Shown here: positions 28,103 through 54,024 of the stretch, in pieces
How positions within the stretch are numbered: position 1 is the first letter of the stretch
Layout of the letters: each line of letters starts with the position of its first letter
Source of the DNA: Trueperaceae bacterium
GTDB lineage: Bacteria; Deinococcota; Deinococci; Deinococcales; Trueperaceae
DNA length: 64,000 nt
NCBI GenBank assembly: GCA_965215565.1
Contig: CBDCDZ010000004.1
Span: 1,184,001 to 1,248,000, forward strand
Direction: 5' to 3'
The notes under the pieces: generated by a model
Database searches by the model: none
Seen by the model: the letters and a program-made list of their open reading frames with translations, nothing else
Told to the model about the DNA's origin: nothing
Made by a program: the position numbers and the translations under genes

Positions 28103-30133
28103 CTACAATACGCTCTGCAACGCTTCTAAAGTCTCCGTTAAGCTCTGCGACTCGAGGGGCGAAAGTTTGCCCTCACCGAAGACGCGCAGACACGCTTGGG
28201 CGACGCGCGGGTCAAAATGGCGTCCGCTTCCGCGTGCAATCTCCGCGAGCGTCGCCTCGACGGACCAGGCCTCTTTATAGGGTCTTTCGTGCGTCAGCGC
28301 GTCCAACACGTCAGCGACGGCGACGATGCGCGCCGCTTCGGGGATGGCGTCACCGGCGAGCCCGTAGGGGTAGCCTTGCCCGTCGTAGTGTTCATGATGG
28401 GAGAGCGCGATCTCTTCGGCGACTTGCAAGAGGCGCGAGCGCCCGTCCGACAAAATACGCGCGCCGATCACCGTGTGGTGGCGGATGAGTTCGAACTCGC
28501 CCTGCGTGAGCTTGTCGGGCTTGAGCAAGACCGCGTCACTGATGCCGATCTTGCCGACGTCGTGAAGTCTTGCGGCGGTGTAGAGGAGTTTGACCTCGTC
28601 GTCGGGGTAGCCGAGCGCGTAGGCGATGGCGGCGGCGTTTCTACCGACGCGCCGCGTGTGCTCACCCGTGATGTCGTCACGGTATTCGGCGGCCAGCGCT
28701 AGGCGCGTGACTACCTCGAGCTGCGACTCCTCGAGTTCCAGGGTACGTTCCGCGACGGCGGCTTCGGCTTCGCGCCGCGCTCTCTGCGCGACTTGGGTGC
28801 GCAAACGGTACGTTTCGGCTTCGTGGCGAGCGCGTTCGACCTCGAACTGCACAGTGAGCTGGCGCGTCTTCTCCTCGCTCTCGCGGTTGAAAAGCGCTCT
28901 TTCTAGGCGGTGGAATTCGCGCTGATGAGAGAGAGCGTTCGCCAAATCGCCGTTCGCCTCGTAAGCCCTAGCGAGAAGTTCGTGCGCCTCGTAAACGGAT
29001 TTCAGGCGCTCTAAGTTCTCAGCGAGCGAGAGCCCTTCGGCTAAAGCGCGCGCGGCGCGTTCGGGAAGATTCAGCTCGAGGTAGTCCCGCCCCAAGTTGA
29101 GTAGGGCGTCCATCTCGCCTCCTCTATCGCCGACATCCTTGGCGATAGAGAGCGCTGACCTATGCGTTTTAAGCGCGTTCTCGAAATGTCCTAGTGCAAC
29201 TTGTACCTGTCCCAGACCGTCTAAGTTGTCGATTTCGTAAGCCCGGTTGTTGACGCAACGAGAAAGCTCCAGCGCCTCCTCGAAGAGCGTTTGCGCGTCG
29301 CGCCACTGCTTTCTGTCGTAATGGAGGTTGGCTAAGTTGTTGAGCGCCGCCGCCTCCATGATGGCATCCCCCGCCGCGCGGCTGATCTTCCGCGCACGCT
29401 GCAGAAAGGTGAGCGCCTGCTCGTCTTGTCCCATGACCTGATAGAGGTTGCCTAGGTTGATGAGGTTGGCAATCGCACTTCGCGAATTTGGCGCGACGCT
29501 TTGGAGCAAGTCGTACGCTCCCTTCAAAGACACCAGAGCGCTCGGATAGTTGCCGAGGAAGCATTCTATCTGTCCGCTATAGTCGAGGATATTCGCTTGA
29601 CGTTCACGTAAACCGTGGCGTTGGGCGATGGGGAGCGCATCTTTGAGATACTCGAGCGCGCGCCCATACTCTCCCTGCTCAGCCACTACACCCGCTAAGA
29701 GGTTAAGGGCTTCGGCTTCTAAAGGGTTGCCCACTTTCCGACTCAGTACTAAAGCTTTAGCTAACCAGTCGGAGGCGTCGCCGAACTGAGCGAGGTCACG
29801 GTAGACGCGCCCTAGCATAAGAGCGCACTCGAGCGCACTTGGGGAGCTTTGCGCGGCTTGCGCGTTCTCAGCCCTCAGCAGCGCATAAGCTTCAAGGAGT
29901 GAACGCAGCGCTTCGGCTGAATACCCCTTTTGATAGTACGCTTTGCCGATGAGTAGCGAGGCTTCCGCTGCCACTATGAGGTTCGCCGATACACCGAGTA
30001 CGCCGTGAGCAAGCTCTAACGCCCGCGCTGGGTCCTGTTCAAGCACCGCCGCCGCGTCAGCGAGCGACGCTTCGACTTCAGCTCCGGGCGCAGATAGAGA
30101 GTTGGCAGCAGGGTTGTGACTTAGCGCGGACAT
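28103..30133 (-). CDS. TPR-repeat / HD-GYP cyclic-dinucleotide phosphodiesterase
   Basis: Multiple TPRs (ALNNLA.LHY.., LDGLG.V); [17 protein letters not shown] and VADVLDAL motifs; no signal peptide or TM. Confidence 0.92.
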
Positions 30134-30164
30134 AGTTTCTCCTCCTTAACTAATAAGGTGTTTT

Positions 30165-31837
30165 TTACTCTTTGCTCATTGGGGCGAGCGGTCCGCCAAG
30201 GCTCTCGCCAGAGACCACTTCGAAGTTCTTCTCAACCGATCCAGGACCAACGGGTTTCTTGCAGTCAGTACGCAACTTGCCGCGCTTTTTATCGTCCTCA
30301 TAAAGGGTCGATCTCTTTGCCCATCGTGTCATCACCGTTCTTACCCGTAAAAGAGAAGGTCTTACCAGGGTCCACTTCCCCCTCGAAGAGAACCGCCTTG
30401 CCGTCCTTTTGCACCACGCGGATGTCCTCGTCATCCGAGCCCGTGTAGCGCAGCGTCAGGCGCGTTACGCCTCCTTCACAGGAAAGAACTGCTTTATCTT
30501 TCTTACCTTTGCCCTTCTTCTGCTTGACGACCTCTTCCAAAAAGACAGCGAGGTCTAGACGCCCCTCGCCTAACTGACCGACGTAGTCTGCGTTGCCTTC
30601 CTCTGCGTAGAGGTTAAAGCTTTGCGCCTTGAGCGCTTCGGCGAGTTCTTTGCGCTTGACATTGAGTTTTTCACCGAGCGCGAGCGCCAGCGCACCAGAC
30701 GCCATCGGCGCAGCCATCGAGGTGCCGCTCCAAGCCGCTAGGCGCTCCCCCGGAGCCGGGCTGTAGACATTCTCACCGGGCGCGGAAAGTTCGACCTCAG
30801 CGCGGTACGTCGCGAAGTCGGACTTGACGTCCGCGCTGTCCACGCTCGTTACGCTGAGCCGCCCCGGAGCCGTTTTTGCCCGCGTCGCCGAGCGCGCCGG
30901 ATAGGACACGGCCGTGTCGCCCGTGTTGCCCGTAGAGGCGACGACGAGCACGCCTTTTTTCACCGCCGTATCAATGACCTCTTCGATCGCCTTGACCTCT
31001 TCGTTGCTCCCCAAACTCAAGTTGATCACGTCCGCTTTCATCTTCACCGCCCAGTGAATCGCCGAGGCGACGTCGGTCAGGTTGCCGCCGCCACCAGGTC
31101 CAAGCACGCGGATAGGGAGAATCGTGGCGCGCGGCGCGACTTGGCGGACGATGCCCGCAACGTTAGTGCCGTGTCCGTAGCCTCCCTCGCCCAAAACGCC
31201 CTCTTCTTGGGGTGTGGCGTCGCCATCATAGAAGTCCCACCACTCTTTCTCCGGGGCTAGCGCCTCTACGAGAGCGGGGTGCTCCAGATCAATCCCCGTG
31301 TCAATAACGGCAACTTTGACACCCTGGCCCAAGTTGCTCGCTACTGCGTGCCCTTCTTCTAAGCGGACTTGTCGCCACAAAGAGGTGTTCTCGGGCATCC
31401 AGGCGTACTCACCACCCGCCCATACATTAGAGCGACCTCCCGCCCACACGTTCGAACGTCCGCCAGCCCATACGTTAGAGCGACCTCCTGCCCACACGTT
31501 GGAGCGCCCTTCCATCTGCGCCCGCTCACCGCCGAGTAAAAAAATGTCGTCGTTGGCCTCGAGTAATCCCTCTACTTTTTCGTTCACCTCCTATAACCGC
31601 AAACGTCCCCGGCTCCCATACGAGCACCTTGCCGTTATATTCCGCTTCAACACTGGCGAGCGTATCCTCAGCGCTGAGGGCGACGGTAAGCGCGTACTCG
31701 GGATCGGGGACATCAGCGCCGAGTGGACGGGCGTCCTCACTTGGAGAGAGACTGCACCCGCCGAGCGAGAGCGCAAGCGTAGTCGCTAAGAGCACGCGCC
31801 TTGTATAGGAAGTTGACAAGATGAGATGGTTGAACAT
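30165..31837 (-). CDS. Subtilisin-like S8 lipoprotein protease with (GRSNVWAG)4 pro-region; two apparent single-base frameshifts (about 31588 and about 30305)
   Basis: Lipobox LGGC in ORF 31526-31837; triad IDTG / HGT / GTSMA in ORF 30298-31587; C-terminal domain continues in ORF 30165-30434. Confidence 0.8.
31414..31509 (-). repeat. Four coding tandem copies of GRSNVWAG (24-nt unit, synonymously diverged)
   Basis: Unit 1 GGG CGC TCC AAC GTG TGG GCA GGA; unit 2 GGT CGC TCT AAC GTA TGG GCT GGC; unit 3 GGA CGT TCG AAC GTG TGG GCG GGA; unit 4 GGT CGC TCT AAT GTA TGG GCG GGT. Confidence 0.95.
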
Positions 31838-31956
31838 AGAGCGCTCCTAGAGGCAGAGGCTTGGTTTCAAGCTATCCCCCTACCCGATACTTCTGCCCTA
31901 TTACCCTAGAGCACACCCTCTTACAAAAAACTCACACATCAGCCGTGTGGTTCAAA

Positions 31957-32066
31957 AAAGGTTGCCGTGCGCTAAGTTTGTGAACTTTTTTATTTTTGCG
32001 AGAGTGAAAAAAGCAACCTTTTGCCCCTTTTTTGGCAACCCTTTGGCAACCTTTGCTCTTTAAGAT
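31957..32066. promoter_or_regulatory. Repeated (G)GCAACC(T/C)TT boxes and putative -10 (TAAGAT) in the divergent promoter region
   Basis: Copies at 31957-31966 (reverse), 32013, 32034 and 32045; TAAGAT at 32061. Confidence 0.45.
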
Positions 32067-32111
32067 AAGAACAAGCCAGGGAAGAAATCCCGGCACGAAA
32101 AGGAGAGAATT

Positions 32112-32240
32112 ATGAAAAAGAAGATGCTCGTTGCCCTCACCGTCAGCCTTTTAAGCCTCGGATTCAGCACCAGCGTCGCGGGAAAGTACCAGGGCTCGTC
32201 ACCCACGACCGACGGTAGAAGCAACGTCTGGGCTGGCTAA
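32112..32240 (+). CDS. Small secreted peptide precursor (42 aa) ending in GRSNVWAG, absent from the ORF track
   Basis: AGGAG RBS; MKKKMLVALTVSLLSLGFSTSVA|GKYQGSSPTTDGRSNVWAG*; followed by a terminator. Confidence 0.9.
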   Translation: MKKKMLVALTVSLLSLGFSTSVAGKYQGSSPTTDGRSNVWAG

Positions 32241-52296: not shown

Positions 52297-52525
52297 CGTA
52301 GCGCCGAGCAGATGAAGGGGGTCATTTTGAGCGCAACGCTGACTTAGACGTTGTCCAGAATAGGCCCGCGCAAAATTCTCACATTTGCCCTTGTGCAGAA
52401 GAACGTTCAAGCCGCAAATTTTGACAGTAGCGCTGAGAATGGAACTGAACCCAAAAAAGTCGCCACACAACGTGGCGACTTTCTATTTTCATCTTGGTGT
52501 TGCGCGGTTTTTTAGGGGTAGTGGC

Positions 52526-52683: not shown

Positions 52684-52809
52684 TTAGCGGTTGACTCTGA
52701 AAATATTGGTTGCAGGTGCGTCCTTGGTCACGTTCTTCCCGGCTGACGCCACGCCGAAGCCGGTGAACGAGAGTGCAACGATCAAGACTTTAACGGTGAA
52801 TGCTTTCAT
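52684..52809 (-). CDS. Small secreted peptide precursor (41 aa), absent from the ORF track
   Basis: AGGAGG RBS; MKAFTVKVLIVALSFTGFGVASA|GKNVTKDAPATNIFRVNR*. Confidence 0.85.
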   Translation of the reverse strand: MKAFTVKVLIVALSFTGFGVASAGKNVTKDAPATNIFRVNR

Positions 52810-52865
52810 AAACGCCTCCTAGAGCGTTCGCCCGAAGGCGAAAAGATGTTCCGGGAGGGTTTCCC

Positions 52866-52929
52866 GGCCGGTTGCGCTACTCGCTCCCTCTACTCCAAGC
52901 GCCCAGGAGAGTCTTCAGCAGGACGTACC
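52866..52929 (-). promoter_or_regulatory. Cyclic di-GMP-II-like riboswitch aptamer
   Basis: GGUACGUCCUGCUGAAGACUCUCCUGGGCGCUUGGAGUAGAGGGAGCGAGUAGCGCAACCGGCC; UGGGC(A/G)CUU...GAG..AGUAG(U/C)GCAACCG core with compensatory GCGCU/AGCGC pseudoknot. Confidence 0.7.
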
Positions 52930-53106
52930 ATGTCGCTAATGACACGCTGGTATGACCGGATGTTACTTGCTGAAAACTCCTAAAGAGTAGAGATCATCAC
53001 GTCCGTAGAGGCTCATCTGCCTCGAACTACACTGTAGCAGCCCCGAGCTTTTTAGGGCGGGAAATTTTTACACCTCAGATATTGTGAACGGCATGTGTAA
53101 CGTTGC

Positions 53107-54024
53107 TTACGCGGCGTTGGTATGTCTACCAAGCGCCGAAACGAACGCGGCGACGACCTCTTTGGGATAGTGGTGTCCGGCGTAGCGCTCGAGTTCGCGA
53201 AACGCCTCTTCAGGGCGCAACGCCCGCCGGTAAGGGCGGTCCGTCGTCATCGCGTCGTAGGTGTCTGCCACCGCAACGATCGAGGACTCCACTAAAATGT
53301 CGTCGCCGGCCAGCCCATGAGGGTAGCCGCTCCCGTCTAAGCGTTCGTGATGTTGCTCGACGATGGTGCCCGCGTCACTCAGAAAGGTAGTTTCCAGTAG
53401 CTCGCGCCCAAACGTCGGGTGCTGTTTAACGATCTGCCACTCGCTCGCGTTCAAGGCGGCAGGTTTCTGTAAAATCTCTAAAGGCACCTTGATCTTGCCT
53501 ATGTCGTGGAGGTACGCGCCGTAGTCGAGCAGATGGAGCCGCTCGGACGAGAGACCTAGCTCTTGCCCTGTCGCGTATGCGAGCGTCTGTAAACGCTCAC
53601 AGTGCTCGGCAGTGTAGCCGTCTCTCACTTCGACATCGACGGCTAAACGCATAAGTTGACTCAGTTCTTGGCTGAGTCTATGAAAGATGGGCTGCGTGGT
53701 GATGTACAAAAAGCGCACTTCGCTGGAGGCGGAGAGTGTCGTCGCCTCGCTCAGCCCGGACGTGACGATGTAGTCGCCCGCGCCTAGCTTCGCGGAGCCG
53801 TGACGCAAGGTGCCCTCTAAGATGTAGTACGTTTCTACCGCTCGCCCTGTAGAGACCAGCGTCATGCGCTCACCCTGACCCAACACGCCCTCGAGCACCT
53901 CTGTGCCCTGCCCCGAGACCAGCAGTTGCACCTCGACCGCTTTGGACGCGACCCGCTCTAAACTCTCACCTCGTTGATAAAAGGTTAAACCTGGAGGTGT
54001 GTTTGCTCGGCGCGCGCTGCTCAT
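53107..54024 (-). CDS. Cupin-like + HD-GYP phosphodiesterase
   Basis: ETYYILEG cupin-like N-terminus; LHDIGK, HHERLDGSGYP and VADTYDAM.TDRPYR motifs; leaderless TACTGT box. Confidence 0.9.
   Translation of the reverse strand: MSSARRANTPPGLTFYQRGESLERVASKAVEVQLLVSGQGTEVLEGVLGQGERMTLVSTGRAVETYYILEGTLRHGSAKLGAGDYIVTSGLSEATTLSASSEVRFLYITTQPIFHRLSQELSQLMRLAVDVEVRDGYTAEHCERLQTLAYATGQELGLSSERLHLLDYGAYLHDIGKIKVPLEILQKPAALNASEWQIVKQHPTFGRELLETTFLSDAGTIVEQHHERLDGSGYPHGLAGDDILVESSIVAVADTYDAMTTDRPYRRALRPEEAFRELERYAGHHYPKEVVAAFVSALGRHTNAA

Follow-up and report, generated by a model that had tools for sequence, protein, structure and literature searches.

Cupin–HD-GYP genes paired with short secreted peptides in Trueperaceae: a likely peptide signal feeding into c-di-GMP control

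Peptide signaling systems of the RRNPP(A) group (Rap-Phr, NprR-NprX, PlcR-PapR and AimR-AimP) place a small gene for an exported pro-peptide beside the gene for a cytoplasmic regulator, and the released peptide is re-imported through Opp, as described in PMC13220807. HD-GYP phosphodiesterases with sensor domains, such as PmGH (4MCW), PA4781 (4R8Z) and RpfG, carry an N-terminal GAF, REC or PAS domain. Class II c-di-GMP riboswitches (RF01786, clan CL00127) are built from helices P1–P4 with a pseudoknot, a kink-turn motif and a set of core nucleotides. Features of all three groups meet at a locus within a 64,000-nucleotide stretch of a Trueperaceae genome (GCA_965215565.1, contig CBDCDZ010000004.1, positions 1,184,001 to 1,248,000), referred to here as the window.

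The locus resembles RRNPP(A) cassettes in its layout, in the conserved short C-terminal part of the peptide and in the presence of several paralogous pairs per genome. It differs from them in that the regulator has a cupin-barrel sensor and no TPR, and because the receptor lacks a TPR, the cassette falls outside RRNPP. Its proposed output is c-di-GMP hydrolysis rather than transcription or response-regulator dephosphorylation, a c-di-GMP riboswitch precedes the peptide gene, and some precursors are long (~100 aa) and folded. The enzyme has the fold and the metal and substrate motifs of known HD-GYP phosphodiesterases, but its N-terminal domain is a cupin and not GAF, REC or PAS. The aptamer shares its helices, pseudoknot, kink-turn motif and core nucleotides with RF01786, and orthologs pass the family cut-off; it departs from RF01786 in a ~75-nt repeat-derived insertion in loop L3, in controlling a micro-peptide and in scoring below the cut-off. 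The HD-GYP architecture review contains 0 instances of the word 'cupin' in its main text (tables and supplements aside), and a full-text literature search, with a minority of subscription papers in its coverage, returned no cupin-HD-GYP with a peptide partner. The cupin-HD-GYP/peptide cassette is real, conserved and apparently undescribed.

The gene at 53107–54024 (minus strand) encodes a 305-aa protein composed of a cupin barrel (residues ~23–109), long helices and an HD-GYP domain. The initial annotation had placed a cupin-HD-GYP gene upstream of the peptide, and this assignment holds: the HD-GYP domain matches Pfam HD_5 at E = 3e-35, Pfam cupin hits are weak (E 0.085 and 0.12), and the all-beta domain of residues 23–109 matches cupins by fold in a structure model with a mean pLDDT of 87.9. 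The same model matches the fold of PmGH (4MCW) at E = 1e-13. The HD, HP, HHE, GYP, Asp and RxY[K/R] motifs are all present, with Arg in RxY[K/R], and the KPG motif has Ala instead of Gly; the meaning of the metal and substrate motifs follows bioRxiv 10.1101/2021.11.05.467447. With neither a signal peptide nor a membrane segment seen in its 305 residues, the protein is predicted to be a cytoplasmic c-di-GMP phosphodiesterase. Metal-binding cupin enzymes carry His-rich motifs 1 and 2. In an alignment of 16 proteins no His was found at the cupin metal positions, and the domain has invariant glutamates, E42 and E64. TPR domains gave no match in the window protein, and its model shows a beta-barrel cupin. 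We infer that this protein is the receptor of the peptide.

Downstream on the minus strand, the ORF at 52684–52809 encodes a predicted secreted pro-peptide of 41 aa and is preceded by a Shine-Dalgarno sequence, AGGAGG, at 52820–52815. Sequence and hydropathy divide the product, much as first proposed, into a 23-aa signal, basic at its start, hydrophobic in its core and closed by Ala-x-Ala (residues 21–23), and an 18-aa mature part; it looks like a Sec substrate that would be cut after Ala23. The ORF and its AGGAGG had been reported earlier, and orthologs of equal length are found at the syntenic position in 2/2 same-genus genomes. In the last 8 codons the closer of these orthologs differs by four synonymous changes and one non-synonymous change. 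Judged from these comparisons, the ORF is real and conserved. Its conserved C-terminal decapeptide region (52687–52716, minus strand) has Pro at position −10, an aromatic residue at −5, a hydrophobic residue at −3 and Asn at −2, and would correspond to the mature signal. The family had been defined by cleavage at A|GK, which does not stand, as this site is absent in one of the two same-genus orthologs and residue 24 is altered in an independent strain; by sequence comparison, the conserved part of the family is the C-terminal tail. For the 41-aa peptide and the other partners, matches above cut-off were found in neither Pfam nor NCBIfam. A terminator-like hairpin (52456–52482, both strands) separates the peptide gene from a convergent ABC permease gene.

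Searches of the phylum with the cupin profile detected the domain in 34/364 genomes, all of them in the Trueperaceae. The analysis covered 52 loci with a full single-cupin HD-GYP gene, with duplicates, tandem-cupin proteins and truncated loci left out. A secreted ORF downstream of the enzyme gene passed our filter at 39 of the 52 (38 without the spurious-looking L071), and the same filter passed 12/55 non-cupin HD-GYP control loci, which came from other taxa. Five further loci have a partner that the filter missed, upstream or divergent, so that 43/52 are partnered, counts that overstate independence because the loci are related. No partner was found at eight of the 52 loci (L041/42/44/45, L066/67/71 and L068), and one more has a degenerate fused partner. 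The genome under study (G000) has five cupin-HD-GYP genes; four adjoin a secreted partner and one has none, and at one paralog the full arrangement is found again, its aptamer being followed by two peptides. Enzyme and partner remain linked where gene order or orientation differs, and across genera no further gene was seen to accompany the pair. At 12/52 loci, distributed over five clades of a quick tree (built without bootstrap, with deep branches poorly fixed), a class II aptamer separates enzyme and partner; such aptamers are absent at 40/52.

Several neighborhoods have features of their own. In the partnerless clade of L066, L067 and L071 the enzyme gene is adjoined by an opposite-strand gene that resembles, by look, a family-5 peptide-binding protein. 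At L058 and L069, long fusions of the TPR/GGDEF-cupin-HD-GYP type are followed by a GAG-like class II aptamer and a long partner, and the L069 aptamer passes RF03169. A 38-aa secreted peptide (G000:C4:1578082-1578198) lies beside an 805-aa regulator-like protein and at a distance of 3 kb from the one cupin-HD-GYP gene of this genome that has no partner, and a 32-aa secreted peptide (G000:C4:2808488-2808586) lies beside an 869-aa protein resembling a large transcriptional regulator.

Beyond the family, the cupin profile retrieved 232 representatives at E ≤ 0.001, and a word-indexed homolog search found 12 close relatives only. Nearly all full-length profile matches carry HD-GYP motifs, and some are fused to GGDEF, GAF or TPR domains; examples of cupin-HD-GYP proteins come from Bacillus infantis, Pontibacillus sp., Peptoclostridium acidaminophilum and two clostridial genomes. 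Among Bacillales, the cupin domain is present in 37/251 genomes, and a partner was detected at 22 of the 30 loci examined and recognized by eye at two more (24/30), with none within 3.4 kb at the other six. Class I c-di-GMP riboswitches precede the pair at at least 3 of the 30 Bacillales loci and at 2/2 clostridial loci (1.5-kb flanks). At the clostridial loci L097 and L100, the partner and the enzyme flank what we take to be a nucleotidyltransferase-like gene, presumably with a HEPN-like gene behind. The gene pair thus recurs in two bacterial phyla, Deinococcota and Bacillota.

The partners range from under 30 to 243 aa and fall into short (41–49 aa), tandem-repeat and long (~93–120 aa, one of 243) classes. 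The tail is retained across these sizes, including in ORFs of 28–30 aa, and is present in some partners in tandem, in 2 or 7 copies; tandem copies of the signal can occur in pheromone precursors. Read by eye, position −5 is aromatic or aliphatic in most tails, position −3 hydrophobic and position −2 Asn or Ser, with L022, L075 and most Bacillales off the pattern. Tails are similar within receptor clades and different between them, as read by eye from the quick tree. Long partners of both phyla align with one another, with an invariant Tyr and an Asp-Pro before the tail, and a structure model of a long partner shows a small beta-alpha-alpha-beta-beta core from which the tail extends as an unstructured free end. 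A fold search with this model found no clear structural match (best Z 3.1), sequence searches found no relative of solved structure, and atlas look-ups gave leads below 0.9 or the protein's own cluster only. Short and long partners show no significant profile match to each other (probability 3.5%), the tail alone linking them. A lipoprotein-type Cys is present in several long partners, for which uptake would require prior proteolysis; no conserved protease was seen in the cassette.

The initial annotation had also grouped the 41-aa peptide with a second one at 32112, credited with the same architecture, and had taken the two peptide/HD-GYP pairings as mutual support. Neither claim survived. 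The 32112 ORF, on the plus strand, is similar to the 41-aa peptide in the signal region alone (34% over 35 aa), and its tail is unrelated, ending in a Trp-containing motif that is repeated in a neighboring subtilase beside a TPR-HD-GYP gene. It was not matched by the 41-aa peptide or its profile, the reverse search was also without a match, and no class II aptamer was found at the 32112 locus; a single family of the two peptides was rejected on these grounds, together with the unshared motif of the mature part. The cluster at 28103–32240 comprises the TPR-HD-GYP gene, the subtilase with four copies of the Trp octapeptide and the divergent 42-aa secreted peptide with the same end, and it is kept in both same-genus genomes (G001 and G002). 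Subtilase repeats are also found beside TPR-HD-GYP genes in G005 and at a second G002 locus. In the window the subtilase (30298–31837) is split into ORFs of 103 aa and 429 aa, which form a single 558-aa ORF in G001, by a frameshift or an assembly error. Like the cupin cassette, this cluster has a short secreted peptide beside an HD-GYP gene, but it differs in its TPR sensor, its subtilase with motif repeats, its unrelated tail and its lack of a class II aptamer. It is a candidate for a separate peptide-to-c-di-GMP system, closer to RRNPP. The pairings at 32112 and 52684 belong to two distinct systems, and neither is a replicate of the other; it is the paralogs and orthologs of the cupin-HD-GYP gene that replicate the pairing.

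The gene pair is likely an undescribed peptide signal that feeds into second-messenger control. As a mechanism we lean towards a peptide-pheromone cassette: after release and re-import, the tail would bind the metal-free cupin and tune c-di-GMP hydrolysis, with the riboswitch likely repressing translation of the peptide when c-di-GMP is high. The cassette is laid out as enzyme gene, class II aptamer and peptide gene, in that order, with intact HD-GYP motifs, complete aptamer helices and a conserved tail. The peptide would be transcribed from its own promoter near 53023, exported by Sec and cleaved after Ala23, trimmed outside the cell to a tail of 5–10 residues and taken up by an Opp/Dpp-type transporter; this genome encodes six family-5 solute-binding proteins. 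The tail may then bind in or on the cupin barrel, and the signal may pass through the long helices to the HD-GYP domain.

A different reading, which we consider unlikely, treats the peptide as an output of the c-di-GMP regulon with a role in the surface, matrix or adhesion (the alternating tail forming a beta-strand), while the phosphodiesterase sets local c-di-GMP and the cupin senses a small metabolite. Other class II aptamers of this genome do precede secreted proteins, and class II switches in Clostridia control adhesins and pili; the folded beta-alpha-alpha-beta-beta core of the long partners would also suit such a role, and cupins commonly bind small molecules, the fold neighbors being enzymes and sensors. 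Against it, most pairs lack a riboswitch and stay paired all the same, short forms down to the 28–30-aa ORFs keep the tail alone while others duplicate it in tandem, and the control HD-GYP genes lack a similar partner rate. Extracellular sensing of the pheromone by a membrane receptor of its own (a kinase, GGDEF or MASE-type protein), with only an indirect effect on the phosphodiesterase, would fit the lipoprotein-type long partners, which would sit on the cell surface, the 27 GGDEF-core ORFs of the genome and the lack of a conserved importer in the cassette, but no conserved membrane sensor was seen beside the pair in either phylum and the tail type tracks the cupin-HD-GYP clade, which makes this quite unlikely.

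The 214-nt leader of the peptide gene had been annotated as holding a c-di-GMP-II-like aptamer, and this is borne out by a complete set of helices and core nucleotides at 52865–53005 (minus strand): P1, P2, the kink-turn motif, P3 and the P4 pseudoknot are all formable and every core nucleotide is kept, with loop L3 interrupted. The proposed check with the Rfam model succeeded in part. RF01786 gives a partial match at 52857–52913 with 30.9 bits (E = 4.5e-4), under the gathering cut-off of 53.5, so that a scan of the leader at the gathering threshold returned no passing match. The missing 5′ half was located 100 nt upstream of the partial match, and a 5′-truncated aptamer was rejected on that account. 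Syntenic same-genus orthologs score 69.1 bits without the insertion and 47.5 bits with a short remnant of it, and the low score of the window copy is most likely due to a dispersed palindromic repeat copy in L3. As the window copy has the helices and core of RF01786 without reaching its 53.5-bit score, it is filed as a putative insertion variant that would work like class II, not as a curated RF01786 member. In an alignment of 17 aptamers, 94.4% of the cells at helix positions are paired and two-sided changes occur at 14/22 pairs, figures that apply to a structure set by eye and to related rows with paralogs included; 0/500 shuffles scored as high, and slid controls gave 29–41%.

The insertion of ~75 nt (52906–52984, minus strand) has a 13-bp closing stem, 52968–52980 with 52908–52920, and extends the 5′ side of loop L3 to 81 nt, compared with 6–9 nt in canonical copies. 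It aligns end to end, reversed, with a free-standing genomic palindromic repeat at a score of 101 (shuffle maximum 46), a repeat present genome-wide in 264 exact core copies and 544 profile hits. The repeat sits in L3 of class II aptamers in both orientations, in the window and at L008/L009, L011 and L032, with remnants at L005 and L018, and it is also seen just downstream of other class II aptamers. A second aptamer within L3 was rejected, as the insertion matches the dispersed repeat and no other Rfam family was found there; an assembly artefact was rejected because a contig of an independent strain, from another study, carries the insertion. Among the class II hits in this genome, 7/11 are below the Rfam cut-off, and five of those seven have an L3 insert. 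Class II aptamers thus appear to tolerate repeat insertions in L3, and because of such insertions Rfam misses these copies. Elsewhere in the genome, L001 (G000:C4:2483145-2484498) has two tandem class II aptamers and, 1 kb away, a third; all three score above the cut-off and precede secreted proteins, the one scanned being without a Pfam match; the aptamer-plus-gene segments at G000:C4:2505947 and 4293659 are identical, a recent duplication.

A separate question is whether the repeat disabled the aptamer in this lineage, leaving the peptide unregulated or silent while the cassette functions in relatives. The score of 30.9 bits against a cut-off of 53.5, a minimum-energy fold without P1 (z-score −0.21) and a kink-turn/P2 region unlike that of the ortholog would agree with such a loss. 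We regard it as rather improbable, since the change in P2 relative to the ortholog is compensatory and the core is intact, an insertion at the same site recurs in other aptamers, one of which passes the RF03169 cut-off (42.4 vs 40), and in the independent strain changes avoid the core (6 in 47 inner insertion bases vs 1 in 99 core and closing-stem bases, p = 0.005).

Expression signals flank the aptamer. A short 5′ hairpin common to related leaders (53008–53023, minus strand) lies ahead of it, and a predicted extended −10 element (53031–53039, minus strand) would place the transcription start near 53023. A generic sigma-70 scan found no promoter at the leader; TAnnnT stands 7 nt ahead of the shared hairpin in 10/10 leaders examined, with a preceding TG in 8/10, and because of this recurrence the peptide is likely on its own transcript from ~53023. 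Behind the aptamer, a predicted switch hairpin (52851–52867, minus strand) takes the 3′ strand of P1 and hides an anti-Shine-Dalgarno sequence, an arrangement suggestive of translational OFF control. Antitermination at this hairpin, which would make an ON switch, was rejected, as related leaders have no U-tract there. On folding 10 leaders, accessibility of the Shine-Dalgarno sequence decreased in five and was unchanged in five; in the window leader it is predicted to be paired in both states (0.06 vs 0.00). That c-di-GMP shuts off peptide translation here, by stabilizing P1 and freeing the anti-Shine-Dalgarno sequence, is weakly predicted from these folds.

With an HD-GYP gene next to a peptide that is predicted to be secreted and lies behind a class II riboswitch, the c-di-GMP feedback loop suggested in the initial annotation is plausible. 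If the peptide activates the enzyme, the loop would be autoinducing, as low c-di-GMP would raise peptide output and thereby lower c-di-GMP further; an inhibitory peptide would make it a homeostat. Activation is favored only slightly. We see it as evenly balanced whether the metal-free cupin represents a new class of intracellular peptide-pheromone receptor, one that would read the tail of its secreted partner and directly switch a c-di-GMP phosphodiesterase in Deinococcota and Bacillota, with the loop closed twice, by class II and class I riboswitches.

To our knowledge, an input signal is known for only a minority of c-di-GMP enzymes. In this cassette a candidate ligand is encoded next door and is short enough for synthesis; as each genome has several cognate pairs, both binding and specificity are open to direct tests. 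If the proposed cassette is confirmed, it would provide a second receptor fold for re-imported peptide signals and extend such signaling to the Deinococcota. Quorum sensing would then act directly on c-di-GMP turnover through a receptor fold other than that of RRNPP, and population sensing would be tied to the switch between motility and biofilm in one step.
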